Of a stretch of DNA of 43,401 bases, positions 5,751-27,775 are shown one piece after another. The position numbers were made by a program, and so were the translations under genes. Within the stretch, counting starts at the first letter, position 1, and each line of letters starts with the position of its first letter. A model generated the notes under the pieces. The model saw only the letters and a list, made by a program, of their open reading frames with translations. It searched no databases and was not told the DNA's origin. Source of the DNA: Psammoneis japonica (lineage: Eukaryota); NCBI GenBank assembly GCA_008632985.1, contig QPGO01000161.1, forward strand, positions 124,001 to 167,401, read 5' to 3'.

Positions 5751-7275
5751 TAGGGCCCTACTTACATCATGTCCACATGTGGGCCGTAAAAAATTTGCGG
5801 CCCATGTGTGCTTGCATTTCCGTGCAATTTTTTGCCGATTTCTCCCTCCACCATGGCGGACCCTGCGGCTGGCCCCACCGGTGAAGGACATTCACTCCAG
5901 CAATCTTGGACGCCTGACAACATCATCAGGGAAATGCCAGATGTGTCAGAATTGCTTGCAGCGGGAACAGAGACATGCATTTTTTCTTGCCTCTGTTCAA
6001 GACACGCCGCAAAACCCGGCATCGCAGTCTGCTGATGAAGCACCACCTGTTTCTTGGGTGCACGACCCCCCTCCAAGTGTTCCTGTGGAGCATCCAGTGG
6101 CCAACAGAGTTTGGGTGCAACTCAGCTTTGCCAAACAAAAAAGTTGATTGTTTCTGATGTGAAGCACTTGCACCCTCGACATGAGCCGCTGCACTCCGCC
6201 GAGGAAAGCACATCACCGGCATTGACAAGGGTGGAGTCAGCACTGTCTGTCTCATTTTTGTCCTGCAAGGCAGCCAACAAAGACAGACCAGACAAATTCT
6301 GAGTGGACTTTGTTGTGCATTGGGCGCGCTTCAGCATTTTGTTCTCCACTTGGTTGAGGCACAAGATCAGCAGCTGTGGGGGTCGTGCAATTTTTGGGAT
6401 TGAAAATTGAAAAAAGGAACAACTGTTGCATCCATTTTGGACCAAGAATGGACACACGGATGCATTTGTTTTTGTTCTGTTGGTGCAAATGGGGTGTGAA
6501 GAGATGCGCTGTTAAGTTGCTTTGCCAGGAGAGCAAGGCAAACCCAATTTTAAGCAAAACAAGCACACAAAGATGGGGCACGGTTCTTGCAGCATCAGCA
6601 TGCATGCAGCACCAGCACATGTCACCTTCTGACAATCATTTGCATGGCCCAGGTCATCTGGCAACCATTCTCACAGCATTGGGAACTGCTCCATTTTGGA
6701 CTTGGCGGCGAAAGATCTGAGAATTTTTCATGATGCCCATGAGTCCATTGTTTGTGCTTCTTGTCCCGGTGGCCCACCCATTTGACATCTGCCCAAATTG
6801 TGCAAACAATGTGCAAATGACAAACTGACTGAGCACCATCCAAGCCATTGTGTTGACAATGAGCCTTGGGAGTTGCTGCTGCCTCCTCATCTTCAGTGGT
6901 TTTTGCACTCATCTCTTCATGTTCTTTCTCATCCTCTGCACCTTTGTGTGCTGTCACATCTTCCTCAGACACTTCGGGCTTGTCCCCCTCTTCTTGCTTG
7001 TGGCTCATGGCTGCCACTCAAATTGTTGCCAGCCACCACATGTTTGTCCTCAATGTTGCTTTCTTCATCAGCTGAACCAATCATCTCGTCTGGAGCTGGC
7101 ACATCGTCGGACATCATGTCATCCTCTTCTGAAGAGCTCATTGTTCAAATGGACACAAAACTGATTTTTCCTGTGCAAAAATGACAACAAGATGAGCTTT
7201 GTTTTAAGAATTGTGGCAAATTTGCGGCCCACATGTGGGTCGCAAAAATTTGCTTGGCCATGTGCAAATGTCAGA
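5751..7275. mobile_element. Probable degraded DNA transposon remnant
   Basis: Related palindromic motifs (ACATGTGGGCCG..AAATTTGCGGCCC) at about 5775-5805 and 7218-7252 bracket a TpA-depleted interior. No protein was confidently recognised. Confidence 0.35.
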
Positions 7276-7524
7276 TCATTTGGAGAAGAACCTGCCTCAA
7301 GTTTGCCATCACAGTGCTGGTGGTGGGTGACACTTGGTGCTGGTGAGTCATTGCCAAGAGATGGCTGCATCCCAGTCACTGCTCGTTCTGATGGTGAGAG
7401 ATGGAATTTTGAAGCTTCGGGTGCTGGTGTGCTTGTCACAACAAATGCTGCGCTTTCTGCCTCCAATGCCGTGCAAATCATTTTCCTGATTCTCACATCT
7501 GCACTGAGACACATGGGAAAAGTT

Positions 7525-7980
7525 CACAGAAAATGACAAAGAAGTGGATGGAAGAAAACAACAGCTCCTTGCTGCTGTCTAAACAGCAGCCCAAAAGATG
7601 TCATGTTGTGATGACAGCACTGCTGTCATCATTCTTGTGAGTTGAGTGGCTTGAGAGCAAAACTGCATTGCGTGGCTGCGTGGCTGTGTGCATGGAACCA
7701 AGAGCACACACGTCTGTGTGTGACAAACAAATGAACAAAGTCAGGCCACTCTCATTGTGCTTGAGGGAGCCACAGAGACAGATTTGAGGTTGGAGGGGCT
7801 GAAGACCTCTCAAGGTCTGAGTTCTAAGTTCCAGAACATGAGAGGACAGAGAAGATTCTGGATCTGCAAGTGACCCCAATGCTTGCTGAGAATTTCAGTG
7901 GGATTGCAGGAAGCTTCAATGAAGCGAAACTTGAGGAAACCAGAGGCAGTTGCCTCAGGAACATTGTGGAATGAGAGGGC
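7525..7980 (-). mobile_element. Degenerate 3' end of a CoDi-like Copia element (RNase H tail, PPT, LTR)
   Basis: 7525-7745 matches the reverse complement of the LTR at 41112-41387. 7740-7980 parallels 8300-8535. Confidence 0.7.
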
Positions 7981-7988
7981 TGTGTGTC

Positions 7989-8167
7989 AATTCATAATTC
8001 CATTCAAAAGCATCATTGGAGTTGTCCACATGATCAATGAGCTTTCATGAGCACTGTTTCTTGGGGCATGCTGTCACTTCTCCACCATGCAAATGCAAAC
8101 ACCTTGCCACCATCCCGATTTGATTGTTTCTGGAAGCAAGCAAAACCATCTTTCATTGGACTCCTGC
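7989..8167 (+). repeat. Mutated copy of 4280-4465 (region between two converging genes)
   Basis: Direct alignment by eye; the differences are mostly TA>TG/CA and CG>TG/CA. Confidence 0.9.
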
Positions 8168-9410
8168 CATGCTGCCACTGTCATTCTTGTGAGCTGAGCA
8201 GCTTGAGAGCAAAACTTCATCACGCGGCTGTGTGTGTGCAGAGCCAAGAGCAAACATGTCTGTGTGTGAAAAACAAACAAAATCCTGCTCAAATCCTGCA
8301 AGGCCACTCCCCATTGTGCTTGAGGAGGGAGCCACAGAGATGGGTTCAATGTCAGATTGTCCGAAGGCCTTGGGGTTGAAGCTCCAGAAGGACAATGATT
8401 CCAGATCTGTGAGTGACTCCAGTGCTTGCTGAGAGTGTCAGCGGGTTTGTGGGGACCTTCAATGAAGTGAAGCTTGAGAAAACCAGAGGACCAGATGCAG
8501 TCACCCTGCAAACACAATGGAGCAAGAGGGCGGCATGTTGCTTGTTGTGCAGCTTGGAGTGGTTGGGAGATGGCAGCACTGTCCACACAGCTGACTTGTT
8601 GCCCCCAAAACATGTGACACATGTCATGGATTGGGGCACCAAGGCAATGCAATGTGATGAACAGATCAAAGATCTGTTCAATGCATGTGCGGGCAGCAAC
8701 AAACTCAGATCCACCTGCAGGTTGCAGTCTCAAATGTGGCTTGTTTCTTGGAGAACCAATCAGCCAGAAACTTGTTGAGGAAATGAAAGATGCCCACAAC
8801 AGAGCATCCAGTGAGCAGGCAATGGAACAAGCTCACGCCAACACAATGAGTGGCAGTGACAAACTTGCCAAGAGGCTCGGGTGCATCTTCAGGAATCAGT
8901 TCTTTCACATTGCCACACACAGTGTTGGCCCAATCACACACAGGCTTGGGAAGGTCCAAACAGTTGCGTTCCTCAGTGTGCACATGCAAGGCACCATGTC
9001 GCATCTTGGACAAGTGATTGCAGACATGTTTTGCTTGATCTGGGTGGCCTTGGTGGGGGGTGCACTGCATGGAAGCTGGACAGAGATGTGGCAGCTGTGG
9101 CGACATCAATGCAACCAAGCAACACAGCCCATTGCAATGAAGAACCCACCAAAGGCTGAAGCTGATGGATGCCAACTGGGCTGAGCAGTTCAGAGGTTTC
9201 AAGCTCTGGGTGGTCTCCCTTGTTGAGGGGAGATAGCACATCAATGCAAGGTTTCTTCCCAAAGAGGTGTGCACAGCTGTCGACCATGCATCCAATGCAC
9301 TTGCCGCAGAAATGGCACAGAGTCTTTTCACAGGCATGACAAGGACTTTCTTGAGCAATCCAAAAGATGAACAGTGCTCTCTTTCCTTCTGGCCATGGAC
9401 ACCACAACTC
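8165..9410 (-). mobile_element. Degraded Ty1/Copia (diatom CoDi-like) retrotransposon: RT C-terminus/RNase H, PPT and partial 3' LTR
   Basis: Peptides SPLNKGDHPELETSELL, GNVKELIPEDAPEPLGKFV, DWFSKKQATFETAT, GSEFVAART and PADTLSKHW. A purine tract ATGGGGAG on the minus strand near 8307-8314 is followed by LTR-like sequence. Confidence 0.9.
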
Positions 9411-9901
9411 CGTGCTGGGTCCTTTTCTACGTTGGATTTACAATCATCACCCCCTTTGACGCCAATTTGCAGAACAAGAATGCCATTCTTTTCTTTGGGA
9501 GCAACCCTTTTGATTGACCTCCGGCTTCTCGCAAATGGAGTCTTGCGGCCCTGGAGATTTTAAATCTTTGCGGTTTTTGGACGACATGGTTGAATGTGGA
9601 CACGACAGTGACCAATTTTCGTTCTTGGATGAGTTCGGCAAACCTGGCAATCGTTACACGTGCAGTCAAGATGCAACTTTTCCCATGATGGCGGGAAGCT
9701 CTGAACCGCAGGAAATTCCTTTGGCTTCCATTACGACCGATTTTGATTGGCAGAAGTGAGTCCTCTTTGTGAGTGCTATTACAATTTTCATAGACCGGAA
9801 CAATGCACCTTCAATTTTTTTTGGTAACTTTCTTTACAGTAGTGACATTTTTTAAAACACAAAAACAACAAAGGCGGCGACTAGATTGTTCGCTCGGTGC
9901 A

Positions 9902-10929
9902 CTATCCAGCATACACTACAAGTACAAGGACAGCAACTGGAGACTTCGCAAAGTTATACGCGGCTGAATAAAGCAGCAAAGAAGCTGATCTATTAATTCT
10001 TTTCCTTGACATCCAAAGCACGAAAGTATGTAGCAAATGACTCCTCAAGCATTCCAAGCATGAAGTGGGTGAGAGTATCTGTTGTGCCAGAGTCCCAAGC
10101 TTTAATAGCCTCAAAGTATTGTGTCTTTTTGCGTTGCGGACGACGAGGGCAGGACAGCCTTCTCGAAGCAGAACATAGTTCATTAGAAGGCGCGCCATCC
10201 TACCATTACCGTCGCGAAACGGGTGAATCCGGGCAAAGATGGTGTGGCAAGACACAGCCAGAAGGAATGGATGAACCCCTTCGGCTGTGCTGCACGATAG
10301 CCAACTAAGAAATTCCGTCAGAAGGTTTTTCACCTCCCACTGTGGCGCAAATAGTTTTTTCTCTCCCGAAATCATCGCAATTTCCATGCCTGATCGCAAA
10401 ATTCCACCGACTTCCGATTCAAATAATACCATACCGTGCAGCTGCTTTAAGTGATCCATGGTAAGGTCGGTTTTCTTGCGACTGAGTTGCAGCGCCTCGT
10501 CGAATGCCCTTTTGTGACCAATAATGTCGTAAACATCGCGTAGCTTCTACCACGGCCGGGGCAGAAACCGGACAAGATAAGCGCTGTTTCTTTGGCAGTC
10601 AGCGGGTTCCCTTCAATAGCATTACTGTTGTATGTCATATCTTGGCCAATTTTTTCAAGAATCTCCTTGATAGCTTCGACCCGAAATGGTCTGTCTGGAT
10701 GCAACAAGTTCCGTTTCGCTGATAGCCCGGCTAGCCGTCGGCCATGTAAAGCCGCGAGATTGGTGAAGAGCTTCGCATATTCTTTGAATATCTTTCCAAA
10801 TGGATCCTGGTTACCTCGATACACCCTTGTCTGCCGCAGAGTTGCGTTGGCCGGGTTGGCTGCCGTGGAGAGTGACATGTTAGTGGCAGCACTGGCGGTG
10901 TGCTTGGAAGACGGAGAAGAATTGACCAA
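9902..10929 (-). CDS. Fic-domain (AMPylase) protein, class II type, split by frameshift(s)
   Basis: Canonical HPFRDGNGRMAR motif in ORF 9902-10459. The autoinhibitory-type SNAIEGN motif lies in the upstream ORF 10447-10929. The frames join around 10460-10540. Confidence 0.8.
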
Positions 10930-11054
10930 CGGAAATTAAAAGACAGCAAATTCATGCCGATCACGGAATGAATTGACCGCTGTTTTCTGACAAGGTAGTT
11001 TTCAAAGAAAGCTCAAGCTTTGGATGCGATTGAAATGCCGTTGCCAGTTCCTGC

Positions 11055-11790
11055 TTATTCTCTGTATGTTACCCACGGGTGATCTTTCACTTCACTCAAA
11101 GAAAGACGCTCATGCGGATCTTCTCGGAACATTCCTTGTAACAAATCAGCAGCCAATTCACTAATGGGACGCCCCCACAATCTGACCATTCGTTTTAAGC
11201 CACCTTCCACCACCATTCTGTATCGCGGATCCTCTTTCATAGCAAACTCCCACGGCGGCAGTCCAACCAACATGATGAACAAGGTGACGCCGGCGGCCCA
11301 CAAGTCTATGGCAAAATCATCAAACGGCTCTTGACTATGTAATACTTCTGGTGAAATGTAATTGGGCTTACCACAAGGTGTCAAAGGTGTGATAAGACGC
11401 CGTAATGTTCCGGCAGATACGTCTGTCACGTTGCCAGTTTCGGGGTCATTGTATGGTGCCCTCAAGCACATGCCAAAATCGAACACGACAGACTTCTTGT
11501 ATTCATCGACCAGTATGTTTTCAAGCGCTGTGTTACGGTGGCACACCCCAGCCCTCTGCAGATGGGAAAGAGCCTGAGAAAATCATAAAGAAAAATGAGA
11601 ACTAGGAATCAAGGAGTTTTTGCACAACTGTGTGAGTTGCAACGCACCTCTGGGATTTGTTGGAATCAGTAACGCGCCACGGGTTCTGAAAAGCGTCCTG
11701 CGCGCTGTACGAAGCCAAAAAGATTGCCCGGGGAATAAAATGGCATGAACATGAGCAGGTAGTCGTCATCCGCCAATGTTTCTAGTATCT
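11055..11790 (-). pseudogene. Ser/Thr protein kinase C-lobe fragment (CAMK-like), probably a pseudogene; intron at 11574-11647
   Basis: DFG, CGKPNYISPE and DLWAAG are present, but the catalytic loop reads HRNTALEN (no Asp). The upstream exon GNLFGFVQRAGRFSEPVARY*FQQ has an in-frame TGA. The 74-nt intron has GT..AG ends. No N-lobe was recognised. Confidence 0.7.
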
Positions 11791-12085: not shown

Positions 12086-15000
12086 CTAAGGAGCTTCATC
12101 TTGCTGTTGCTTTTCTCGTTGTTCCGCGGCAGCCAATGGATTCTCCAAACTCACATCGCGCGAGAACGACATTTCGGAAAAGGCGACACTCACTTCTTGA
12201 TTCAAGTCAGGAGGAATTATCAATCCCAAGCTTCCCTTGGTTGTGTAGGGTTCCAACGACATGAGCGAAATGCCCGACATGGCTGAACTGTCCCTCGCAA
12301 AGTCAGGTTCGGCGGGCCCATCGACATCACTGGCGGCAGCGGCCTTGGGAGGAGGCGCCATTTTGGAAGCCTTGCTGCCATTGGATCCTTGAAACTGCTG
12401 TAAAGTGGCTTGCATCTTTTTCCATTCCTCTTCCTTTTCCATGGCGTCTTGAGCATCGTCCTCTTCGTCTTCGCGTTCCGCACACGATTTCTGCTGATCC
12501 AGAAACGTCTGCGTCTGAAACGAGAGAGGAGCGTCACTGTCTTTACGAAGCGCCAAAAATACATTTTGAATGTAATTGTGTTCGGCAGAATTGATGGAAA
12601 ACTGCGATCCGTGCGACAGTCCCGGTGGTTCCAAACCACCATCCACCGAAGCGACTCCTCGTCGTACGGATGACATGGACGCGGATCCAAACGACGTTCC
12701 GGTCGGTTCGGCAGAATTGATGGAAAAGTGCGATCCGTGCGACGGTCCCGGCGGTTCCAAACCACCATCCACCGGAGCGACTCCTCGTCGTACGGATGAC
12801 ATGGACGCGGATCCAAACGACGTTCCGGTCGGTTCGGCAGAATTGATGGAAAACTGCGATCCGTGCGACAGTCCCGGCGGTTCCAAACCACCATCCACCG
12901 GAGCGACACCTCGTCGTACGGATGGCATGGACGCGGATCCAAACGACGTTCCGGTCGGTTCTGCAGAATTGATGGAAAACTGCGATCCGTGCGACAGTCC
13001 CGGCGGTTCCAAACCACCATCCACCGGAGCGAATCCTCGTCGTACGGAGGACATGGACGCGGATCCAAACGACCTTCTGGTCGGTTGGAGTCTATGGTGT
13101 TCCACACTCGTCATGGACATGGAACCAAATGAAATGCCTGTTGGTTCTAGTGGCCGTTCCATGGACGCCATGGTCTCAAAATCAACTCGTGCACCCGGTG
13201 GTAGAGGCGGAGGCATGCTTGAATTGTTGCAATGTTGTTGTTGCTGCTGCGTCTCCGAGCCTCGCTTTGCCTTTGCTTGTTGTTCTTCTGCTTCCTTTGC
13301 AAACTTTGTCTTTTCTTCTTGCGACAAGCGCTTTTTTCCTCCAGTCTTTTCCCCCCTATCACCGCCACCAGCTCCCGGAGCCTGAGACGGTAAATGCTGA
13401 GGTATGGGTGGCATTCCCATAAAGGGCGATTGCTGCATCACCCGGCTTTGCGAAGACATGGGTGCAGGCGGAGGAACGGTGCTGCAATCTCCTGATGGTT
13501 GATAGGGTGGAACGAGTGTTGTCTTTGGAGCAACGGTGTTGGTAACTTCAAGAATATCTTCTGTCGCAGGATCATAGACAGGAGCATCGACTCCTTTGGC
13601 GCGTCCGATAGTTGCGCCGTCAAATGCCAGAGGCGGAGCCGATGGCCCGTTTCGCTCAAGGTCTGTGAACGACGCCGACGCATTCTCTCGAAAAGCTCTT
13701 TCGGACATTCCACTTCGGGGCGTCAAGTCCGTAGCCAGTGTCGAACGTGTTCCATCCAAGCTGGAAACTGAAGATTTGTTGCTGGCAATCTCCACCGCAA
13801 TCTCATTGTGATCCGATATGTTCTCAGTCTGCGGGAGTAACATCCACCCCCCCTCAGCAGCAACGTCACTTGCCAGCTCACTTAGTTTGAGTCCTCCATG
13901 GATTAGTTGCGCTCGCGCCTTATTGGAGGTTGGTAGCATCAGTTGAATTTCACCATGATTCCAACGCCATACATCAGGAAGGAGAGCCGTTTGTGAAGTA
14001 GCTAGTGCAACTGAGCATGGCATTGTAACCAAGAAGGCCGGTGACAATCCGTCAATGTGTGTATCCTCGTCTCCAATACGGAGATGCATTTTTGTCTCCT
14101 TAAGCTTCGCAAAGATCCTCTGAAGTACCTGTGTATGGGCTTCGAGAAGCATGTACAGCGAACCTTTCCACACGGAGCCAATCTTGAGATCTTCTATCTG
14201 CTCGTCTGTTGCACCGCACTCGTGCAGCACTTTGACAAGGTTCTTACAGATGGTGCGTACTCTTTCGATTTCATACTGCTTCAAATCGTCGTGGAGCTCA
14301 ATTACACAGTTTAATCTTACAACGAATCGTTCCTTCCAGAAACAACTCCCTCGCATGCGTTTCACTGAAACGTGTGGTCCGCCGTATTTGACTTCACCAA
14401 ATATGGCAAGTTGTGACAACCGCGACTCGAGCCTGTGAGCGGCTTGGATAGCACGGGCATTCCAGTGTTCCTGCTCATCCATATTTCTGGCATCAAAATC
14501 GACACCAACAAACCCCAATGACCCATCACTGGATGTCGATGAGCTATCCGACATCAAGACATCCCCTTGATGAGAATCGTCTTTGACTCCAGCCGAAGAC
14601 ACTTTTGTCGAATGGTTTCCGGTTCTTCTGCTTGAAGCAGGTCCTGAATGGACGCCCTCCGTTGTTGAACCTTCTTCGGCTGTCTGGCCAGCAATCCAAA
14701 ACAGTTTCTCTAATCCTTTGCGTGATTTTTCCCAATCCATCGAACGCCACTTGTTTTCATATGCCAGCAGCATCTCTTTGCATCTCTTTATCTCGCTCGA
14801 CTCGAACCTCTCAACGAGAAACTTTCGCAAGTTACCCAGAAAGCGCTTGGGTTCGTGATCGCTCTGATCATATACCTCACAATAAAGCGTGTCTTCACTT
14901 CTAACTCCAAAGGCGGCCATTAAATTCTGCATGTATATCGTCCGTTGAGGCCTTCGAATCGTCTCGTCCGCTAGAGTGCGCCGGCAACAGTAGGCATCTC

Positions 15001-15630
15001 TTCCTGCCATTATGCCAGTGCCCCGTTTCAAGATCCAGTCAGAAATCTTCATGGCAATCTCCTTTCTGCTGAAAGCACAATCGAAACAATCTTCTTCCAG
15101 CTCGACAAAATGGTACTGGAACTTCTCACCAAGACCTTGTTCATGTAGAAATCTAGTCTTTCTGTCTATTTCCGTCTCGGATAATCCAAAGCAAATGAAG
15201 CATAGTCGGATTTCCTTATGAGATTCCCCATTTGAAGCTAGCTGTAAAGCGGCCAAAAGTTCAAAAGGCACCATTTTGAATTGAAGTAACCCTCAGAAGC
15301 TAGGATTGCAACGACGCCGCCTCCGCGCGTCTGCAGTAAGCCTCCATCCAGAATGTTCTTTTGAATTACCCCATCAGGACTGTTCGTAAGCCTAGTCTCA
15401 TCAAAGAAGACTTCCAAGACGCCAAGACGCATATGCTCTGTTGTCCAGTGCGTCTGGAGAACACCGTCCTTCGCAAGAGCGCTAGCAAGGTGCCTAAGAG
15501 TGTACGGTTCGCAATCGGCGGCAGTTGATGTGCTTCGCCAGAGGACTTCGCTGCCGTGAAATGAAAGAAAGACATCGTTTCGCTGTTCTTGAACGTTCTC
15601 ACACATTCGCGTTGCCATCTTGCTTGACAC
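12086..15630 (-). CDS. TIR-domain protein, about 1180 aa, with a low-complexity repeat-containing C-terminus
   Basis: The N-terminus has DVFLSFHG...VFFDE...VVAILASEGYFNSKWCL. Restoring one T in the T-run near 15263-15266 joins the two ORFs to give WCLFELLAAL, the TIR WCxxEL motif. Confidence 0.75.
12581..13084 (-). repeat. Coding tandem repeat, 4 x 126 bp (42 aa)
   Basis: Units start at 12581, 12707, 12833 and 12959 and encode EPTGTSFGSASMSSVRRGVAPVDGGLEPPGLSHGSQFSINSA. Confidence 0.95.
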
Positions 15631-15994
15631 TCAACGTCCCATCCACTTTACTGTTAGCAGTAAACTTTACTGTTTATAACAAAGAAGCGCCATGGTGGAC
15701 GTGCGAGACGGCACTGAGAACTGGCCTCATCACATCACTCACGCACTCCATCCCAACTCCCAGCTTGGGAGGTCTGTAAGCCTCATCACAGCGTTGCGTT
15801 GGATCCTGCGCGTTGGATGAGCTGGATTCGGAAAACGCCCGATGGGACAATGACGAGGTTGCGAATGAATTCCGTTGTGCTGCGTCTTTCGTTTGCGTTC
15901 CTCTGTCATCATCATTTACTTCCCTTTATCCGCTGGCACCTGTTGTGGGGACATTGATGGAGTCAGCCAACCGATTGGTTTCACTGGATGGATC

Positions 15995-16110
15995 CACAGC
16001 ACTTTCAATTGCAGTTGAGTGACACCCTGGTGCAACCTCGAGGATTCCCATGAAACATCTCTCGCTTCCAGAAATCAAGCAATGGGATCAAGGTGGTGGC
16101 AAGGCATGCA
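15995..16110 (+). repeat. Diverged copy of the FkbM gene 3' end and 3' flank (about 4400-4510, inverted)
   Basis: attgcagttgagtgacaccctggtgcaacc versus attgccgtggagtaacaccctggtgcgacc; both encode ...SIAVE*, with the stop TAA in one copy and TGA in the other. Confidence 0.7.
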
Positions 16111-16359
16111 ACTTGCATGTCAGTGTCAGACATGCAACAGAATGCCCCGACTGATTGTGCATGTTGCCACCCACTCGGCCGTGCTTTCTGCCACTGTGGC
16201 CATGTGGCGCAGTCAATCAGACCTGTGTGTGTGTGACAGGTGATGTGGTTTTGGTCAAAGCAAGCAAACTGGTCAAAAAAGTGTCAATGGTCACCACTTG
16301 CCAGCATTGTGAGGGAAAGGACATTTTTGCACTGTTTCAGACACCACTGTCGTGGCGGT

Positions 16360-17065
16360 GACTCCCCAAACAACAAGACATCGCATGGTTTGATGTGCCA
16401 CTGATGCAACACAACACGTCCAAGCAGGAAAACAATTTTGGATAAATTCTGGAGATTCAACTGTCACATTGCTGGAATCACACCACTGGAGCCACATCTG
16501 AAATGAGGGACATCGTTGGCTTCTTCGCATCTGCGATTTCAGGGCTTGCAGCAACAGACGGCATGTTTTCTGGCAGACAAGCCCCCAGAAAGCTTTACAC
16601 ACAGCCTAAAACTTGAACCATTCTGTGAGTGACGTGAAAGGTGCAAGTCACACTGCTCACCACAGGTGCGGCAGCCTTCAGGAACTCGAACAAACTTTCG
16701 CTTTTTGTGCTGAACGGCTTCATCTGCAGCATTTTTGGCACCATTTTTGGCGCTTTTTGCAAACTCACACAGGGCTTGTGTCAGCAGAAATGGGCTCTGC
16801 TTCTGAAGCAAGGAAACATCAGCTTCAGGCATCTTGTCAAAGTTCAACCAGTTGTTGCAGAGAGAGCCCTGATGCACCTCCTCTGGAGATCCGTCAAGCA
16901 ACCTTCATCGTCTGGCTTGACAATGCCACGTTCAGTCTAAAAAAAAAAATTGCTGCATCTTGATGCACAACTGGCAAGTGCTTGGAATGAGTTGGCTTCT
17001 GAAAGACTTCTTGGGAGGTGCAGCAATTTCTCAAGAAGATGCTTGGGAGCTTGCTTGCACAGAAA
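16360..17065 (-). pseudogene. Hypermutated paralogous copy of the BTB gene 3' half and downstream region (20470-21430)
   Basis: Aligns to 20470-20950 and 21115-21430, e.g. PEADVSLLQKQSPFLLTQALCEFAKSAK. Confidence 0.85.
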
Positions 17066-17849
17066 ATGCTTGGGTCAGCGCCAATGAATGGCATGTTCTG
17101 CATTGCTGGAAAATGCCCTGAGAACTTGAGAGTCAACAAGAACAAGGCAACCTCAAGACCATCATTTGTCTTTCACACAAGCAAAGCATCAAGCGTTGAG
17201 TCAGTGCAACAAATTTCTGCATTTTTGTGCAAAATCTCAAGCAGCATTTCTTGAAAAATCACTCAAGAGAGCTGCCTTGTGTGCAATGCATGACAACCAA
17301 CTCAGCCACAAAACCAAAGACTGGCCTTTTTGGGGCAGGCCAGCCAATGTGGTGACAGAAAAATTCAGCAAACCACCTCAAATGCTGTGTGCACACTGTG
17401 CATTGCATTGCATGTGGGGAGTCACAAAGCTGGTGCTTTTGGTGTGTGTGCACACTTCAGCACACAGCTGGAAGAGTTGGGGCTTGTCCAGATGAGAGAG
17501 ATTTGCAAGAGAAGCGAAAAGAGAAAAGGCTGCAAGGTTTCTCACTTGTCATGAGCAGCTTCTTTTTCTAGAGAACCAGGCCCAGCTTCTGCACAGTTGC
17601 TTGGGGCAGTTGTCTCCAGCTCTCTCACAGTGGCTGGCAAAGGCTTGGCAGAAGAGCTGGCATTTTCAGTGTGGCACTTGGAAGTGGAAAACCATGCTTC
17701 AAATTTCAAAAAACCACAGCATTTTTGTGGGCATGGCCCCACAATTTTGGTTTTCATGATGTGCCTGTCTCAACATTTCTCATTTTTTTCATGTGAAAAA
17801 CAAAAACAATGGCTTTTGATTCTCAAACAATGGTTCATTTTCCACTGAT

Positions 17850-18900
17850 GCATGCTCTCACTCTGGAGGCAGGACCTGGGCCTCCCATGTGGCATTTTCT
17901 CACATTGCTTCTGTTTGATGGCCTTCTGCCAGAGCTTTGCAGGTGGCGCTGGTGTTGTTCCTTCCAACAAGGCACCCATGAGCATGGCCGTCATTGCCGC
18001 CATGCTTGAATGGCTTTTGAGGGTGGCTCTGTGTTGTTGTCCCAGCTGTTTTTTGATTTTGGGGATTTCATTGTCCTTTTTCCATGAGTTGAGCTGCAAG
18101 AAGCAATGCCGTGGTGTTTGCAGAGTTTCCATGGCTTTTTTGGTCATTTGCTGTTGTCCTCATTGCTGGGTTTGCAAGTGCATCTTGTGCTTTGGAAGAT
18201 TGATTTTGGCCCATCACATGTTGCACACCAGGTTGGCACTGTGGCACCTGCCTTGCTGAGTGGCTTGTTGTTTTTGCAGCTCTTCTTGAGCAGCTGAGAA
18301 GGGAGTCTTGAAGTTGGTCTGCATCTTGTTGGCATCCAGTTTCTTCCTCTGTTCTTTGCATGCATCGCAGTGTGTGACAGTTTTAAACTCCAGGGTGCAG
18401 GTGCAGTTGAGGCACAATCTTTGATTTGTTGGATGAGCAATTTGAAGGGGCACTGGGGTCTCATGGCATTCCCATGTGCAGAAAGACCATTGATCTTCTT
18501 GGGCATTGTTGAATTTTGGAAGGACTCAATGAAGTCATCAGGTGATGGCACATTGCGGTGGCCATGGCTCTGGGGTGCAAGGGTCATGTTGTTGTTGACA
18601 TTGCAGAGGCGTGCACTTGAGTGTCATTGACAAGGAGCACATGTGGTTTCAGCTAGAAGGGCATTGTTGCCATCTTCAGTCTGAGTGTGAAAGGACTGGC
18701 TCATCGCTGCTGTTGTGTGTGAGATTTGTTGCTGCAGGCTGCCTTTGGAAATTGGGGTGATCAGCAGGAGAGGAGCAGTTTGTGTGTGTTTGCAAAATTG
18801 CCTCTTTTTTTGTTGGCAATCACCCATGTGTGCATTGCCAGATGATTTTGCTGCAGAGCTCAAATGCAGAATTCTGTGGGCCAAATGTCACATGCAGCCA
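17850..18900 (-). mobile_element. Degraded gag-like region of a second diatom LTR retrotransposon type
   Basis: Fragments PFKLLIQQIKDC and KMQTNFKTPFSAAQEELQKQQATQQGRCHSAN resemble the diatom Copia gag pattern KTWxNFKxHFxxAQxELRxQ..GYHxAN as I recall it. Confidence 0.6.
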
Positions 18901-19195
18901 GCCCTGCTCAGGGGGATGCCACTTGCAGCCAGACAGAAATGTTTTTGCCCACTGTGGAAATTGGTCAAGACTGTCAAGTTGTTGTGCTTTGACAGTGTGT
19001 GTTGAACATGCAGGGATGTTGTTTCAAATGGAAATTTCAGGAAAAAGTGACAAATGACCCTTGATGGATTTTGTTTTGCCTGGAGGTGGAACCAGCTCTG
19101 CATGAGGTTGGGGTCAGAATTTTTGGCCTTTTTTGCAAAAGAATTTGGAGAAGGGAGTTTGGCACTTCAAACTCCTGTTGGTGTAAAAGAAAGGA

Positions 19196-20140
19196 GTGTG
19201 CACATCCCCATCACTTGCACAGTGCCATGGCAAACTTTCCCTCGTTGCACCCATCTCTGACAAGAAAGCAGTTGACAGGAAAATTGTCATTGCTGCTGCT
19301 TCTGATCTTCTTGTTGTCATCATCTTGATCATCCCCCTGTTGCAGATTCTGCAGACTGATGAAATCAGCACACATGATTCCTTTGCGGTGGCAACAGACA
19401 AACCCATGTCAACTGCTGATTGCTTGGATCTTTGTCTGGAGAATCAAGTGAATGGTTTGATTGCTCAAAACAATCAAGCATTTGTCACAATGCCAGCTAA
19501 AGCCACCAGTTCTTTCCTGAAATTGTTCACCAAGATTTGCACGAAACAAGAGCCTCTTGACAATTTTGTCAACTGCCATCAGCAGACAAAAGCATTCTTG
19601 ACTGATTCGTTGCACTTGCCACCAATGATTGCATTTCACACATCATTGGATCAACCGTTCATTGATCTGCAGAACACACCTCATCCAATGGTGCATTGAT
19701 CATCTGCATTCATTGACAAGAAACAGATTGACTGCTCTGTGGCATTCAAATGGTCTTGACCTTTCATGTTTGTCAGAGGCGTCATTTCAAGATTGGAAGT
19801 GCTGTCAGTCATTTCAACCTTGAAAAGAATGGGATGCATTGCATCATGGAGATGAGGGTCCAGCAATTGACATTGTCAAAAAGAGAACACAAGAGATTGG
19901 CTTTGGTTCATTCAATGTTTTAACATGCAAGTCCTGCAAAGCAATTGTGAACAATGAACCCAATCTGGTCTCTTTGTTGGCTGCAAGCAAGCAGATAAGA
20001 TCTAAAAACTGCTCTCAAAGAATCATTCTCCAGATGTGTTGGCAGGCCTCCCAGCAAAGACAAATGTCGAAGAGGAAAATTCAAGTGTTCCTGCATTTGA
20101 ACAATGAGAATCTCTTGTCGTGTCACTCAATGATTGGCTG
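19196..20140 (+). pseudogene. Degraded copy of a host-type membrane-anchored protein gene
   Basis: An N-terminal hydrophobic stretch is followed by TMPAKATSSFLKLFTKIC..DNFVN..FLTDSLHLPPMI. It has several frameshifts, no Tyr, and TpA is depleted. Confidence 0.45.
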
Positions 20141-20469
20141 AAGGCAAAAAGAGAAATGCTCTTGAGTGGGCTCTGAAATTGAAATCAAATGTAACATGTC
20201 AAGCCACTGCCAAGCACATGGAGAAAGAACTGTTTTCATGTCCCCATCATGAAGCAATGAGGTGTCATTGTCCAGTGTCAAGTGATGGCAGGCATCAAGA
20301 GTTTTGCAAGCACAAGAAAGTTTGCTGAAACAAATGAGGATCCATTCAGACAAGCCAAATCAATTGGGCTAAATCCAGGTGATGGTCGAAACAGATGCCA
20401 ACGGATGCCAGGAAGTATGACAAACGATGATGACTCAGGAATTCATTGGCAACCCCGTCATTTACACCA

Positions 20470-20960
20470 CTTCCCCACACAAGACACAGCGTGGTTGCAT
20501 GTGCCAGCGATGCAACAACACACGGCCCAAGCGGGATAATGACTTTAGATGAATTCTGTAGATTTAACTATCACATTGCAATAAAATTTCACCATTGGAG
20601 TGACATCTGAAATGAGGTGCACCGTCCACTTCTTTGTATCCGCGATTTTAGCCCATGTAATAAACAGCATGATAAGTTCCAAAGTGCCCGCCTTCATGAA
20701 GCCGAACAACCTGACCGGAACTTGAAGAACCATCCTGTAGGTTACGTGATCGGAGCCGCCCAATCATATCCTGCTGGTCACGGGAATGGCAGCCATCAGG
20801 AACTCGAACAAACTTTCTCTGGTTGCGCTGAACGGCTTCATCGGCACCCTTTTTGGCGCTTTTTCCAAACTCACACGGGGCATGCGTCAGTAGAAATGGG
20901 CTGTGCTTCTGAAGCAAGGCAACATCAGCTTCGAGTATCTTGCCAAAGTTCGAACACAGC
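20470..20960 (-). repeat. Partial tandem duplicate of the BTB gene C-terminal region
   Basis: 20848-20947 repeats 21113-21210 (EADVALLQKHSPFLLTHAPCEFGKSAKK). Confidence 0.75.
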
Positions 20961-21035
20961 ACAAGATTGGGATAATAATGTTAGATGAGTTCAGGAGATT
21001 AAACTATCATATTGCCTAATTCGCGACTTTGGAGT

Positions 21036-22168
21036 TACCCCCAAAAATCAAAGGCTTCACTTCTTCGTCTCAGCCGTTTAGTCACTACTGGCCTTCCCCG
21101 AGCTTGAGCAACCTTTTTGGCGCTTTTTACAAACTCGCACAATGCTTCTGTCAGTAGAAATGGGTTCTGCTTCTGAAGCAAGGTAACATCAGCTTCAGGA
21201 ATCTTGCCAATGATCGACCAGTCGTCGCAGAGGGCCTTGATACACCTCTTCTGGAGATCCGTAACGAAGCTGTCATCATCTGGTTTGACAATGCTACGTT
21301 CAGCCTCGATTTAAAAAAAAGCTGCATCTCGATGCACAGCCGGTAAGTACTCGGCACGAGTCAGCTTCTGAAAAGCTTCTTGGGAGGCACCGCAGTTCAT
21401 CAAGAAAATGCCTAGGAGCTTGCTTACATGGAGACTAAACTTCTCTGTATCACTTGGACTCGTTTTAGTGCCTTCTACGAGATCGATCCAAAATTCTTCG
21501 TCCGACACATGCATCAAACGGGACTTGTCGTCAATGCGAAGGATCTTCTTACGGCACGTTGCTGCAGCGGCGTCTCTGATCTTTTCATCATTTAGAATCG
21601 TGGCATGTTCAAAATACGTCCCACAAGTGCTCGCATTAAAAAGGTCTTTCTTCCAAAAGTGTTTGGCATCCCATCGAAGCCGACGAATCTGAAAATACCC
21701 GCCAAGATAATGAAGCGGAGTCGCCGTTTCCGTTGTTATCAGGAGCTCCGAGTCCAGAGAGTACATGTAATCCAGCACATTCGGAAACGCCTTTGCAGCA
21801 ATCTCCTCCAACTCTATCTGACTCTTCCTAGTGTTGGACTCTGCAAATCGACCTCCATCCTTGAACAATCGATCAAAATACTCGCTCTTGCGTGGGCCGG
21901 CTGCAAGTTGCGCCTTGTGCACATGATACGTGTCGGTTTTTGTCGTGTTGTTTTTGGTCTGATACTTGATTTCAATCGTCCAGTCCGAGTAATTATCTCC
22001 TGGATCTTGTCGCCACAATATCTTTTTCTTGTCATTTCGAATCGCCGGAGGAGCCACGTCAGAATCGTACGCATCGTACGATTCGCCGAGTTTTGAGCGC
22101 TTCTTCGAATTTGCTGCCACCTCCTCTCCGTTTGCTGCTATTGTCTTGCGCTTTGCTGTCGTGGCCAT
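21036..22168 (-). CDS. BTB/POZ-domain protein
   Basis: SDWTIEI...TYHVHKAQLAAGPRKSEYFDRLF...AFPNVLDYMY. The TAA at 21311-21313 lies in a homopolymer and is in frame with the continuation IEAERSIVKPDDDSFVTDLQKRCI..., so it is probably TTA (Leu) miscalled. Confidence 0.85.
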
Positions 22169-22885
22169 TGCTTCTCACTGCCTTCTGTTGCCAGAGAACT
22201 CAACAATGTTGTGATCTGATGAGCCTCAAACTGATGAAGAAGGTTTGCATACGATGAACATGCTAACACGAAGAATGTTTTGAAACATCTTGCGGCTTAT
22301 TGCGGCTTAGAGTCTTCAATCAAATCGCGATCTTTCAATCAAAAACTCCACCGCACTTTCGCGCCGTATTGAAAGCACGTAGATTCCACGTACAAAGATA
22401 CGTCGAGTGGAGAGCGGGAAACTATCCGCCCTCGCATGAGGTGATAACGGCTGCGTATAAAATGTACCTGGCTTCTGCGTAGAAAAAGCCCGCGCGAACC
22501 GAAGGTACACTCCGGCATTTTATTGCCCCCTCACGTTCGAAGGCCAACGTTTCCCAAACGATGCTGTAATGGCGGAAGACGGCTCAGATCACCTTCAACA
22601 CCTTGGTGACGTTGTCAATCCATGGACTGAAACATAAGACTGGCGAGAGAAACCAAATTTAAATTTGCAGTGGTGAAAACAGGTGCAACTCAGAGACGCA
22701 CCGGCATGGCATCGCAGTTCTGAAAGCAAATGCAGCTGAATGCTGAAAAGACATGCGGAGAGCATGTAAATCCTTCTTATGCGAGTTACACGCATTTCTA
22801 ACGGACGAAAAGGTTTAATGCACGAGAGGGAGAACGAATGGAATGTGTTTAATAGGTTACTGCAAGTCAACGACTGACTACATCG

Positions 22886-23878
22886 TCACCCAAGACCCGC
22901 GTCTGCCACGAGATTCTCGTTTCTTTCGGTCGCATCATCACCGGCAGGTGACTCGAAGACCAAGTCATCATGGCGAGTGGAGGCAGTGTTGATACCACCG
23001 CACTTGTTTGCCCGAGTATCGTTGGCATCACCACCAGTGGGTGCCATTTCAACTCCGGAAGCATCATCTCCAGTAGATGGCATTTCAGGTGCTGCCTCAA
23101 TGTCCGTATCGTCATTGGGTTCTGTATCGATACAATCAAAAGACAGATCCGTTCGTCCCAGTATCCATTGAATGGTATCCGTTATGCCACCAATGATCCC
23201 AAGAGCGAGAAATAAGTTGCTACTGGCAGCCACTGCCAAAATGAAATCGACAACGGTGCTAAAGCAACGAAGACCTACAAGCATTGTGGAAAATCCGCGG
23301 GACCGGTCCTCACTGTCGAGACCGCTCCAGGAAATGCCAACCCCATAGCTGCTCACCATTGATCCAATGCCAACGCATCCCAAAACCGCATAGGCACCCC
23401 ACATTGCTACATCGTCTTCTAAGGCAGACACCAAGGCCAGGTAAATATCAATGGCAACGGCCATGGTGAACCAAACGATCAAAAACAACTCCCAGCTGGT
23501 GAAAAAGTTGTTTATTGTGACAATTCCGTAAAGAGTCTTGTGGCATTTTGGAAGTGTCGGGCTCTGACGCCTGGCTTGTTCCACCCCCGTGTCGGACGCT
23601 TTGGCGCAAATCACATCCGTCACAAGCACCCAAATGAGATTGGTAAGAGCCACAAGCATGGGTCCGACGGTCGCAATGGTCTTTGTGGGAGCCAAAAGGG
23701 ATGACACCACGACACCACAATCGGCACCCACATCGGTTGCCGCCGTTACAACCGAAGCACGGCGCCGTTGCGGGAAACTAGTGTTGGGGTCGTTCAAAAA
23801 CCACACGCGGGTCACAAAGTAATAGATGCTGCTGGAAATCAAACCTACCAATGTTCCTAAAATAGCGGCGGACACCAT
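22886..23878 (-). CDS. Hypothetical multi-pass membrane protein
   Basis: ORF of about 330 aa from the ATG at 23878, with several hydrophobic helices and an acidic C-terminal tail. Confidence 0.65.
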   Translation of the reverse strand: MVSAAILGTLVGLISSSIYYFVTRVWFLNDPNTSFPQRRRASVVTAATDVGADCGVVVSSLLAPTKTIATVGPMLVALTNLIWVLVTDVICAKASDTGVEQARRQSPTLPKCHKTLYGIVTINNFFTSWELFLIVWFTMAVAIDIYLALVSALEDDVAMWGAYAVLGCVGIGSMVSSYGVGISWSGLDSEDRSRGFSTMLVGLRCFSTVVDFILAVAASSNLFLALGIIGGITDTIQWILGRTDLSFDCIDTEPNDDTDIEAAPEMPSTGDDASGVEMAPTGGDANDTRANKCGGINTASTRHDDLVFESPAGDDATERNENLVADAGLG

Positions 23879-24269
23879 TGTTATCTCAAGAGGTAATGAC
23901 ACTTTCTGGTGAAGCCTCAAGCGTTTGAAAAAATGAAAGATGAATATTATGAATGGAGTAAAATGCTTGAATTCTGAAACTAGTCACGGAGCAAGACGCG
24001 ACTTGAAGAGTCGCATCACGTCTCGCGTTCTTGCGAATTCGAAACTCGAACGTTATAGGTCGTGTCTTATTCTGTTGGTACTATAATGCTTCCACCGGTA
24101 TGCTAGCTAATAAAGTGCATAGGCAGGCGAAACCTTACCAAGGCACGACTAACTCGATAGTTCGCGCAGGGAAACACCAGAAAAGGTAGCATTCTTCCTA
24201 ATACCAACATGCTCTTTCACGTTCCCCATCGCCACCAGAAAAGTTTCCAGCTGTTCAACGATCAATGTG

Positions 24270-27200
24270 ACGGCTTTGGAAAGCAGAACAAAGCTGGAGC
24301 ACCCAGGTTCTAGTCTCCAATTTCGAGACATTTTCAGGCTATGCTGTCGCACAGCAAACAACGGGAATTTCACACGGAATGCATTTGCGAACACAGCACA
24401 TGCAACCAACCATGATTGGACGACTTTTCTGCACGCAACATTGTGGATTGCGAAGATTGCGGATTTTCACTGCACGGCTTGTCAATTGATTTTCAACCAC
24501 TCACAAATGACAAGAGCCATGCATCCTTGTCAGCTCATTTTTGTTTCGTTTTCATGTTGCAGCCCTCGACCAGCAGAGAGTCAGTGGAGGAGCAGCCAGT
24601 GTGAGAATTTTTCACTGCTGCCGCGGCACCCTCTCTCCAAGTCTCTTCTAAATCTGCCCAGCAATCTCTTTTCTTCAACCCCATCCCACAGTGACCAACA
24701 AGCCCCTGCTGCTGGAGTTGTGGAAGACAAAGCTGCTCCTGCATGAAAAAGAGGCCACCCCACAAAAAGCTTTTTGTGCACGCACACAGAGCAGCTCAGC
24801 AAAGGCATGAAGAACCTCTCCCCTGTGTCTGCCAGCATGAACATTTTGTTGCTGTCACAGCATTGTTGTCATCATCTGACTGCTGAATGTGCCCTTTTTG
24901 GTTCTTGTCTAAATCAAGCTGAACTGTCACTCTTGCTCTGCAAAAACCCAGGAGACCCAACGTGGTCAGATTGTTCAAGTCATTTGGCCTCTTCTTGTTT
25001 GAGTTTTCATTGGTGGCTTGCTCCAACTTTGCCAACTTTTTTTGTGGCCTGCAGCAGATTGTTGCTCTTTGGCAGCTTCCGCCACTTTTTTGCTGCACTT
25101 TGAGGTTACCAGACAGGCACTTTGGGGCTGGTGCCCACCCCATGACAGACCACAAAACTTTGAGCCATTTCTCCACCTCTAAATCCAAAACATGCAGGAT
25201 GGTTGTTTGCAGTTTGATGTGCCTGCTGGAAGTTTTTCTTGGGAGGCACAATGAATGACATGCTTGGCCCTCAACATTTCATTTGTGGCCAGCGTGATGG
25301 GCGAGAGGGACAGGCTTCTTTTTTTCTTGTTGGGGGGCAGCAGGGTTCTTGACCATTGCATTTGCTCAGTGTGTGAGTGGAGGGTTGCAAGCTTGTCTCC
25401 AGCTCTGAAAAGGTGGAGTCAACGGCAAATGAGTTTGTGCTCCATTTGGCCAACTGTCTTGCTGCAGTCTTTGTGCTGGTTCACTCACATGCTCTGCTGC
25501 TTCATGTGCTGCTGTCTAACATGTGCTGCACCGAAGGTGCTGCATGGAAGGAGAGGTTGTGTGTGACATGGCAAAACATGGCCCAGCACCCAGCACTTTC
25601 CTTCAAGCCCCTGCTTGCCACAGTGTCTTTGCTGTGAGATCTTGCTGAGATGGGCATGATGATGGATTTTGGCAGCTCTGTGAAGAGCTCTAAGATTTTC
25701 ACTCTGGCTGCCCCAGCTGAGTTTGGGGTGCATTGCTTTTTTGTTTGGCTGGCTTTGCAGCCACTTTTTGTTTGAAAGCCAGCTCAGCCCAGCATGATTG
25801 GCAGCTCCAGAGCTGCTCAAATGGGGAGAGGTGCACACACGTGTGTTCATTCCTTGTTTTGGTGCTGCAAAAAGCAGCAATCTGATGCACATGGGTGCCC
25901 CTTGTTGGCTCACACTGGGTTGGGTTTTTGAGCAACTTGGAGAGAGCTTTCTTTCTCAAGGCTTGCAAAGGTGCCAAAGAATTTTTCTTCACACTTCTTC
26001 AAGCTTGGACCAAAGTTGCCCAAAGCCACAGATTCTCTTTTCCTTGCTCAGGCTTGGGCTCAGGAGGTGCTGGCCCGCTCCTCCAAAAATGGAGCTGATG
26101 TGCTCTCTCTCTTTGTCAGCCCCACCTCACATTGTGCCCAACTTGGAACCCAAGCTGCAGCTCAGATTCCACCAGAAATCATGCACTGTGACACAAAAGG
26201 TTTGTTTCATCACCTCAGCTGTTGCTTTCAGCAGCTTGGAGCTGCCACAAGGAAGGCGCTGCACAATGAACATGGTGCTCTCATCACCAGAGGCATTGTG
26301 ATGTAAAAAAAATGAAATCTGTTTCACCGCGCCTCACCACCACCCACACCAACACCGACCACAGCAGACCCATGTTCCCCAGCACCCACAAAGGGCGGCA
26401 GGGACAATTTGAACACTGTTGAACGTTGTCAGAAAGCAATGCCATCAACATTGTCCAAAGGCAATGCCGTCAATGCATCATCAGAAAGAGGCTGTTTGTT
26501 TTAAGTCAGAATGGCACCGACCGGATGCTTGTTGCACCACTTGGGAGACACCAAAGTGAACACTGCAGAAAACTAAAACTCGTGTCTGTCTCCAAAGACA
26601 ATTTGTTTGAAGAGAATGTGAGCGAAATTCCTGGCATGAAACCATCCAGGAAGTCCTCCAACACGGACCCCAACGATGAAAGGAAATGATGATCGTGGAA
26701 ACTTGCCATCATGTGCAGAATTGTGCAGGAATTGTGTGCTGAAGCTGCAGCATCGAAGTGCAAAAAGAGCAAACACTCGGACCTGGAAATGCTGGCCACT
26801 TGAAAGACTTGTGAAGACCCACTTTGAAGCGCTGTGAAGTGTTGATCATGACATTGAACTGCACTGCAAAGAAAACTTGGAGGAAGAATATTGGCAAGAA
26901 AAACAAAGGATGAAACTTGAAATGGTCTCGACTCAAAATTCTGGCCAAATGCACAGAATTGTGCATGGAATTTGCACTGAAATGACTGACTTGGAAATTG
27001 CTGAATCATGCAGAGGTTGATGCAGAAAACACACTGACACATGGAAAGAAAATGCAAAGAGCTGCAACACCATGGCGGTGCCGCTCCCCTGAACGCAGAC
27101 ACAACAGAGCATCCCCTCCAACACCTTTTGGTTTCTCTGTCATTGACGCAACTGCCTGACGTCCCAAAGTGCCTGAAGAGTTTGGCATGCCACCACACTC

Positions 27201-27700
27201 TCACACGGGACAATCCTGCGGGCGCTTGTGCAGAATTGCGAGGCATTGTGATGCAGATTTCACCACTCACAATTTGATCACAAGAGGTTTGATTCTTTTG
27301 CACTCTGTGCTTTTTTCTTCTCAGATTTTGGCTCTTCTTCACCCGCACGTCTTCTGCCCACTTGTTTGTGACAGCGCCCCCTCTGCTCCATTGTGATGTG
27401 GATTTCACCACTCACAATTTGATCACAAGAGGTTTGATTCTTTTGCACTCCTGCCATTCTTCTCTGGCACGTCTTCTTCCCACTTGTTTGTGTCCGGGGC
27501 GAGGTTCTTCTGATGAGGTCTCTTTTGCTTGCTGGCGTGTGTCTTTTTCTGAGATGGTTCCTTCATCAGGAGTTGCAGATTTGGCTTCACCTTGCTCTCT
27601 CTCTCTTCTTTTGTCCCATTCCACGGTTTCCTCTTCCCTTTTTCTTGTTTGTTTTGTTCCTTCTTTAGTGCGTTTGCGGCCGACCATGGTGCGAAAATTT
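24270..27700. other. TpA-depleted tract of degraded, unassigned (probably repeat-derived) sequence
   Basis: Only about 14 TA dinucleotides by hand count in 3.4 kb. Many short Cys/His-rich ORFs and no recognisable domain. Confidence 0.6.
27245..27492 (+). repeat. Two-copy tandem duplication, period about 144 bp
   Basis: attgtgatg(ca/tg)gatttcaccactcacaatttgatcacaagaggtttgattcttttgcactc occurs twice, followed by cacgtcttct..cccacttgtttgtg. Confidence 0.85.
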
Positions 27701-27775
27701 TAGCTTGCTGTCTGTGCGACGTTCGTCATTTCGCCTTGATGCTCGGTCGTCGATCGTGCATGACATTTTTTCAAG

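Follow-up and report, generated by a model that had tools for sequence, protein, structure and literature searches.

Loss of TpA and CpG from a BTB gene fragment in a transposon-like element of a diatom-like stramenopile

Introduction

RIP, which operates in Neurospora and other fungi, introduces C>T changes at CpA, raises TpA and mutates both copies of a duplication. To our knowledge, it was the only mutational genome defence of this kind known before a preprint of 2026 on the alga Bigelowiella natans. Host gene fragments and mobile DNA can be brought together by Pack-MULE-type transduplication, and the alternative transposition of Ac/Ds elements can yield duplications.

In the B. natans preprint (Mettrop et al., bioRxiv 10.64898/2026.01.13.699255), 231 of the 302 mutations in mutation-accumulation lines were located in a giant virus and a virophage, both integrated into the genome. 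Those mutations were almost all TpA>TpG/CpA, the spectrum was almost exclusively AT>GC, and the de novo rate in clonal lines was about 1000-fold over the background (10.64898/2026.01.13.699255). The same text reports 124 TpA-poor, CpA+TpG-rich clusters in the B. natans genome, enriched in transposon domains, and proposes an ADAT2-like deaminase (10.64898/2026.01.13.699255). As to diatoms, DNMT5a-dependent methylation of transposons is described for Phaeodactylum tricornutum in the text available to us (PMC9998398). A literature search for a TpA-loss signature in diatoms found no report; it returned the B. natans preprint alone.

Here, we describe 43,401 nucleotides of DNA from Psammoneis japonica (contig QPGO01000161.1), referred to as the window hereafter. 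As in the available account of B. natans, TpA>TpG/CpA changes occur in the window on both strands and in discrete regions, and the remainder is spared; unlike B. natans, the host is a diatom-like stramenopile and not a rhizarian.

Results

Composition of the window

In its dinucleotide o/e profiles, the 43.4-kb window falls into blocks with sharp borders. The depleted domains D1 (5788–9427), D2 (15928–20415) and D3 (24341–27851) have TA o/e values of 0.03, 0.04 and 0.05 and CG o/e values of 0.26, 0.19 and 0.35, respectively; D2, of about 4.5 kb, holds the BTB fragment and contains 14 TA, with TG and CA o/e values of 1.69 and 1.92. Domain D4 (30277–41076) consists of two parts: D4a (30277–33439; TA 0.11, CG 0.82), which is depleted in TA, and D4b (33440–41076; TA 0.05, CG 0.54). 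A possible further domain is D5 (42277–43401; TA 0.11, CG 0.87). The TG and CA o/e values of the depleted blocks are 1.4–1.9, and the rest of the window, the normal blocks, shows TA values of 0.42–0.61 and CG values of 0.91–1.01. The five or six depleted domains account for ~23.6 kb of the 43.4 kb (~54%). TpA loss can be separated from CpG loss, as is seen in D4a and D5, where the loss of TA is not accompanied by one of CG. The ApT o/e value (0.74–0.91 in depleted vs 0.82–0.96 in normal blocks) is not clearly lowered, so that a route through ApT methylation is unlikely. A strong local skew is seen in D2 at 17501–19000 (AT skew −0.25 to −0.28, GC skew up to +0.22), which TA loss does not explain because that loss is strand-symmetric.

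The ORFs bearing Pfam families were found in the normal blocks (OSBS/enolase, FkbM methyltransferase, Fic, protein kinase, thioredoxin and BTB), the sole exception inside the depleted domains in the Pfam search being the P0110-type relic in D4 described below. No Pfam family was found for the ORFs of at least 60 aa in D1–D3, those of 60–109 aa giving weak, below-cut-off, Cys-rich chance matches, and the depleted-domain ORFs of at least 110 aa gave no credible Pfam match. For the OSBS protein, all named relatives come from diatoms (Odontella aurita, 51%; Pseudo-nitzschia australis, 45%); together with the named BTB relatives given below, they indicate that the host is a diatom or closely related to diatoms. 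Within a 1068-aa ORF on the minus strand (12086–15292), four tandem 126-bp copies at 12580–13086, 95–96% identical, encode a Gly/Ser/Pro-rich repeat peptide.

Contigs of a second data set, X2, recorded as 'DNA?', look transcript-derived. The long pieces among those listed (9937–11572, 13489–15648 and 21150–24149) are gene-bearing stretches, and one contig skips 74 nt at 11572–11647, whose CT..AC ends correspond to a GT..AG intron of the kinase gene, read on the minus strand. The X2 contigs do not cover the greater part of the depleted domains; this gap is not taken as evidence of silence. For 15800–22300, the records listed include none of RNA.

The BTB fragment and its loss of TA and CG

The preliminary description of this DNA, made from its letters, recorded a host BTB gene duplicate that had been erased beside a spared source gene. 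Self-alignment places this fragment at 16341/16373–17065 on the minus strand (segments A-B-C), in the TA- and CG-depleted D2. It corresponds to the last ~690 bp of a BTB gene, comprising the C-terminal coding part and the 3′ flank, with a frameshift at a T-run near 16940, and no BTB domain was found upstream of it. Judged from its sequence, the fragment was copied from the 3′ end of a host BTB gene and is non-functional, with the BTB locus at 20464–22174 as its closest relative in view. In the self-comparison, 16738–17065 matches 21108–21434 with ~82% identity (81% over 16738–17059 vs 21108–21428). The homology noticed earlier is thus real, but it is larger than was stated, as 16373–16845 also matches 20479–20951, with 73% identity. 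The alignment of the fragment with the related protein P0002 reaches the C-terminal motif, and PF00651 is present in the parent gene, in agreement with a BTB/POZ family origin. The homology to the locus extends ~170 bp beyond the stop codon at 20648–20650; what was copied was therefore the host locus, as DNA or as mRNA, and not a foreign homologue. This non-coding extension, together with the Pfam BTB match of the neighbour, bears out the view of a duplicated host sequence. A purine/pyrimidine k-mer dot plot revealed no further homology between 17066–20478 and 21435–24584, and a simple 4.1-kb tandem duplication was rejected for this reason.

The normal copy at 21108–21434 has 11 TA, of which 10 are alignable. 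The fragment keeps none: five have become TG, three CA, one AA and one TC, which agrees with the earlier count of at least 8 of about 11 TA sites as TG/CA. The three example changes quoted at that time are all present in this alignment, and 11 of its 14 CG sites are changed (8 to TG/CA), so that most CG have indeed been lost. Across both non-overlapping BTB segments, 0 of 24 TA are kept and 18 are now TG or CA, while each of the four TA that the fragment itself possesses lies opposite a non-TA in the normal copy. When four normal-vs-depleted pairs were considered, transitions were found at 33 of the 83 TA-context bases vs 33 of the 433 A/T bases in other contexts (Fisher OR 8, p = 2e-12), and at 24 of the 91 CG-context bases vs 30 of the 352 other G/C bases (p = 2e-5). 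The divergence at other sites, ~14%, serves as the baseline and implies that the duplication is old. In small normal-vs-normal controls, TA was kept at 1/2 and 1/3 sites between the two copies of the B segment in the neighbouring locus (B′ vs B″) and at 3/3 sites in the 12.6-kb tandem repeat.

Direction of the change

The direction had first been argued from Tyr codons retained in the source copy. TA loss as the direction stands; the argument itself is thin, because the sole Tyr codon in 21115–21430 is Y276. At this residue, His in the fragment, nine homologues have Tyr (5), Ser (2), Leu (1) or Asn (1), and never His. Two further nonsynonymous TA changes in segment B-C of the fragment, Leu254>Pro and Val250>Ala, produce residues found there in 0/11 homologues each; Val349>Ala is ambiguous, as P0002 also has Ala. 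The C-terminal run reads ...FVRVPYG...AVYYYNG in P0002, ...FVRVPDG...AVYYMG in 20651–20980 and ...FVRVPEG...AVCCCKP in the fragment. In the two columns of segment B where both normal copies have TA, CA or TG is seen in the fragment. Cys and His are absent from the homologues at the changed sites, and TA loss and gain are far from equal (TA>TG/CA 18 vs TG>TA 1). Four lines of sequence evidence agree that TA was lost: the residue changes in segment B-C, the C-terminal run, the two columns of segment B and, as the largest sample, the relic in D4 described below.

The neighbouring BTB locus

The neighbouring BTB gene (segments D-C-B″; 21035–22174, minus strand) carries PF00651 (3.3e-11), and its protein has 14 homologues, the named ones being from Seminavis robusta (36%). 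The block that holds it, N3, has a TA o/e of 0.54 and a CG o/e of 1.01, as expected from the claim that the neighbour was spared. Segments B′-A′ on the minus strand (20464–20956), normal in TA, contain the 113-bp B segment for a second time, together with the 3′ flank and the C-terminal end of the ancestral coding sequence (...AVYYMG, stop). The two B copies (20844–20956 and 21108–21220) are 84% identical in the self-comparison, and between them lies spacer X (20957–21107), which is 151 bp long, TA-rich and without counterpart in the fragment. The neighbour accordingly carries a 264-bp internal duplication (B″-X-B′) that the fragment is without. Splicing across a GT..AG interval, exactly 264 nt long, could join B″ to B′ and restore the family C-terminus. 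An in-frame TAA is present at 21311–21313, where the homologues have Leu (7/9) or Phe (2/9); X2 contig record 11 reproduces 21150–21409, this TAA included, without difference.

The preliminary description called the source gene spared and protein-coding. It has escaped TA loss, but with its in-frame TAA and internal duplication it is not pristine, and it need not be the donor either. KNAA (four codons) is common to the fragment and P0002 and is lacking in B′-A′; because the fragment retains codons that the neighbour is without, the neighbour is the closest relative in view and not necessarily the donor. The organism also has a further paralogue, ~91% identical, which shows 22 differences over the 241 bases of the match (X2 record 12). 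The metagenome BTB loci L001–L009 are short and at most 41% identical, and no DNA outgroup was obtained from them.

The element around D2

D2 is bracketed by inverted repeats of ~160 bp, namely, a left terminal inverted repeat (TIR) at 15849–16007 on the plus strand and a right one at 20326–20462 on the minus strand. The alignment of 15849–16007 with 20462–20326 has 103 identities in 165 columns and a score of 84, where shuffled sequences reach at most 36. Of the outer 25 nt, 23 agree, and their pattern occurs twice in the window vs 0 times in 100 shuffles. Bracketed in this way, the fragment sits inside a 4.6-kb TIR-type, transposon-like element (15849–20462), which is probably non-autonomous. 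No target-site duplication was found at 15849 and 20462, the flanks ...CGATGGGAC and TACACCACT... being unmatched, and no transposase relic was found in D2 by the Pfam search of ORFs of at least 60 aa. In the public run X1, the summed depth at 18780–19443 (part of the D2 interior) and at 7492–8819 (part of D1) is 4000–6000 vs ~57, that is, high-copy, and the depth at the BTB fragment region is 61–70 vs 57, that is, about single-copy. The TA-free zone starts 80–125 bp inside the left end and stops 50–90 bp inside the right end. As the outer 50–125 bp of both TIRs retain TA and CG, the depleted domain does not coincide exactly with the element. The loss signature given in the preliminary description is confirmed. 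The fragment is, however, no special target: the TA-free domain is bounded by TIRs and carries it as one passenger.

In the neighbour, the BTB homology begins 1–17 bp beyond the right TIR. Alternative transposition or aberrant gap repair produces duplications of this kind, with their start at a transposon end. Given the start of the homology next to the right TIR, at its outer edge, we tentatively propose that the end of the flanking gene may have been duplicated into this place by a transposon-mediated event, while giving this proposal somewhat less than an even chance. A permissive alignment had hinted that the BTB homology runs into the right TIR; its score of 23 vs a shuffle maximum of 33 leaves this unsupported. 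The arrangement resembles the Pack-MULE and Ac/Ds products in two respects, the long TIRs on either side of a host gene fragment and the start of the duplication at the transposon end. It differs from them in that the present case shows no target-site duplication, transposase kinship or family copies.

A unit of 100–190 bp, unmutated at 4277–4499 between two convergent genes, recurs in mutated form in D1 (7986–8172) and, inverted, at 16004–16107 in the sub-terminal left TIR region of D2. The D1 copy at 7986–8172 is thus the mutated counterpart of the normal 4277–4470.

The transposon gene relic in D4

D4 contains a degraded large transposon-type gene (DUF6589 + SF2 helicase) at 32805–38163 on the plus strand. 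A 452-aa ORF in it (35737–37092) matches P0110, a protein of 1677 aa with DUF6589, DEAD and Helicase_C, residues 4–1675 of which align with 32805–38163 in three frames. No function for DUF6589 was found in the parts of the literature consulted. At the 52 aligned Tyr residues of P0110, the window has no Tyr but 15 His, 12 Cys and 7 Phe, vs 41/60 Phe, 11/13 Trp and 102/143 Leu kept. Arg is kept at 37 of 95 positions, the changes including 12 Gln, 7 Cys, 6 His and 6 stop. Inverted repeats, 95% and 86% complementary, bracket the relic (32325–32419 and 39935–40035) and outline a 7.7-kb TIR-type element; two 84-nt direct repeats (31098–31181 and 40129–40212) lie just outside it. The depletion in D4 extends past the TIR-like pair 32325–32419 and 39935–40035.

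In the D4a block, an open ORF of 325 aa with FG-GAP_2-like repeats occurs at 30666–31640 on the plus strand (TA o/e 0.11, CG 0.82). Its Tyr content is 0.6% vs 3.0–4.8% in eight homologues, and the five conserved Tyr columns of the repeat motif have Phe, Phe, Phe, Cys and Leu. This ORF could belong to a host-type gene that selection still maintains within a TA-editing domain, or to one that has recently succumbed.

Features of the mutation process

Between the normal 4270–4470 and the depleted 7979–8172, 12 of 13 TA sites (8 to TG, 4 to CA) and 7 of 8 CG sites are changed. A different comparison, of 7629–7946 with 8181–8489, both depleted, yielded eight sites at which the copies disagree, one having TG and the other CA; this indicates independent hits after the duplication. 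The two strands are affected alike: Tyr>Cys and Tyr>His number 12 and 15 in the P0110 relic, and TG and CA number 19 and 14 in the paralogue pairs. Equal strands and independent hits within a domain point to an action on DNA in place and not on a transcript.

Among the 82 surviving TA in D1–D4, YTAR accounts for 52 (63%) and RTAY for 1; among the 721 TA in the normal blocks, the numbers are 136 (19%) and 190 (26%), the differences having p values of 2e-16 and 2e-9, respectively. This suggests that the process reads beyond two bases, with RTAY preferred and YTAR resistant. New TA arising from CA/TG was ruled out as the source of the YTAR excess: YCAR and YTGR make up 22–24% of the CA and TG in the domains, where these precursors show no YNNR bias. 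As for the strand hit in relation to the flanking base, RTAR gave TG 3 and CA 4, and YTAY gave TG 12 and CA 8, by which a −2 purine rule and a +1 pyrimidine rule are unseparated.

X1 contig record 6 matches 13489–21179, the TA-free domain included, with 21 differing letters in 7686 bases; the stretch is therefore not an assembly artefact. Among the 40 listed of the 148 differences between the window and X1, 18 of those with record 6 fall in D2 (4.5 kb) vs 2 in 3.2 kb of normal flank. Ten of these 18 listed differences are at CpG. Two of the 14 surviving TA sites of D2 (16596 and 18654) are TA in the window and CA in X1 among the listed differences. Change in D2 may be continuing; the differences could also reflect alleles, divergence between strains or errors in the calling of modified bases.

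Discussion

Comparison with B. natans

The A>G/T>C transitions in the window are concentrated at TpA, as in B. natans, with 18 of the 24 TA of the BTB segments now TG or CA. They are likewise confined to regions of mobile origin, host genes being spared, with TA o/e values of 0.03–0.11 vs 0.42–0.61 elsewhere. The spectrum is not one of AT>GC only: CpG also decays here (CG o/e 0.19–0.54 in D1–D3 and D4b), unlike in the available account of B. natans, and the organisms may differ in this respect. This CpG component is most simply a second, separate process. Further differences from what that account contains are that the depletion is near total here (TA o/e 0.03–0.05 vs 0.45 in the NCLDV region of B. 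natans), that transposon bodies and a host gene fragment are affected in place of NCLDV and virophage, and that a tetranucleotide bias exists, the surviving TA being YTAR.

Proposed explanation

The window presents a signature of TA loss with a defined direction, sharp domains that match transposon bodies, no strand bias and a spared relative. The best overall explanation, which we regard as probable, is that the fragment is a passenger in a TIR element and that two transition processes have acted on element bodies. The first would convert the A of TpA to G on either strand, with TG or CA as the product, and would have gone almost to completion. The second, C>T at CpG, would be slower and separable from the first. 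The BTB fragment would have been erased as a passenger of the element. For the TpA process, we infer both an enzyme and a targeting signal. By analogy with the proposal for B. natans, the process might be an enzymatic deamination of adenine in DNA, an assignment for which we see the balance as even.

The fragment is erased and the 82%-identical neighbour and the TA-rich spacer X, 4 kb away, are untouched; the targeting is therefore by place. Recognition would depend on the element being silenced, and neither on homology nor on a foreign composition; we lean moderately toward this reading. The CpG loss very likely reflects deamination of 5-methylcytosine in methylated transposons. In common with such decay, CG>TG/CA changes are confined to the transposon blocks, and Arg has turned into Gln, Cys, His and stop. 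Unlike it, they form the smaller half of the signature, are absent from D4a and D5 despite the TA loss there, and the methylation is here a prediction.

Alternative explanations

A duplication-triggered defence resembling RIP, by which homology would be detected and the BTB fragment mutated as a duplicate, is improbable. It shares with the present case context-specific transitions that destroy repeated or mobile DNA and leave dinucleotide scars; repeats and duplicated pieces do occur inside the depleted domains, and the diatom DNMT4 enzymes are related to fungal RID in the text available to us (PMC9998398). The polarity is nevertheless opposite, as no C>T at CpA with a rise of TpA is seen and TA is destroyed instead of created, its o/e falling to 0.03–0.05. 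The partner copies, namely, the BTB neighbour and 4277–4470, retain normal TA, whereas RIP mutates both, and the BTB fragment region has about single-copy depth in X1 (61–70 vs 57). The pair of a normal 4277–4470 and a mutated 7986–8172 argues against both a RIP-like homology trigger and the recognition of foreign composition.

ADAR-like A-to-I editing of element transcripts, fixed by reverse transcription, is more improbable still. ADARs prefer a U 5′ of the edited A, according to the Discussion of the B. natans preprint (10.64898/2026.01.13.699255), in line with the TpA context. Such editing would act on the transcript strand only, but the strands are equal here (Tyr>Cys 12 and Tyr>His 15; TG 19 and CA 14). 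The carriers are, moreover, TIR-type elements and host-derived pieces in situ with non-coding flank, and two copies in one domain have been mutated independently.

Even less credible is the view that no mutation took place, the DNA being foreign and intrinsically poor in TA and CG and the BTB-like piece being a viral or transposon homologue. The sharp compositional borders of the blocks and the lack of a Pfam family in D1–D3 fit this view. The homology to the host locus, however, includes ~170 bp past the stop codon, the differences are concentrated at TA and CG sites, and the intact relatives have Tyr at the positions of His and Cys in the window. A sequencing or assembly artefact, such as miscalls at modified bases, to which the CpG location of about half of the listed window-vs-X1 differences in D2 could be ascribed, has a negligible likelihood given that X1 record 6 reproduces 13489–21179 with 21 differing letters in 7686 bases, the TA-free domain included, and X2 record 11 reproduces 21150–21409 with its TAA and no difference.

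Biological meaning

With two transition processes acting on element bodies as the preferred explanation, the window appears to hold a second, independent occurrence of TpA hypermutation. We also put forward, as a conjecture that we rate a little below even, that diatoms possess an active adenine-editing defence at the DNA level, old within SAR, which reads RTAY best and YTAR worst and is aimed at silenced transposon bodies with borders sharp to ~100 bp; it would have rewritten about half of this 43-kb region, erasing passengers and sparing an expressed relative. TpA loss can occur without CpG loss, and any candidate deaminase would have to reproduce the extended RTAY preference to which the surviving sites point. 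The depleted domains mislead ORF finders and domain searches, because they lose the TAA and TAG stops and all Tyr codons. The erasure of a host-derived passenger beside a spared, 82%-identical neighbour indicates targeting by location or state, and not by homology or foreign composition. If the conjecture of an adenine-editing defence is true, the TA-free domains would be a record, legible in the sequence, of what the cell treated as non-self.
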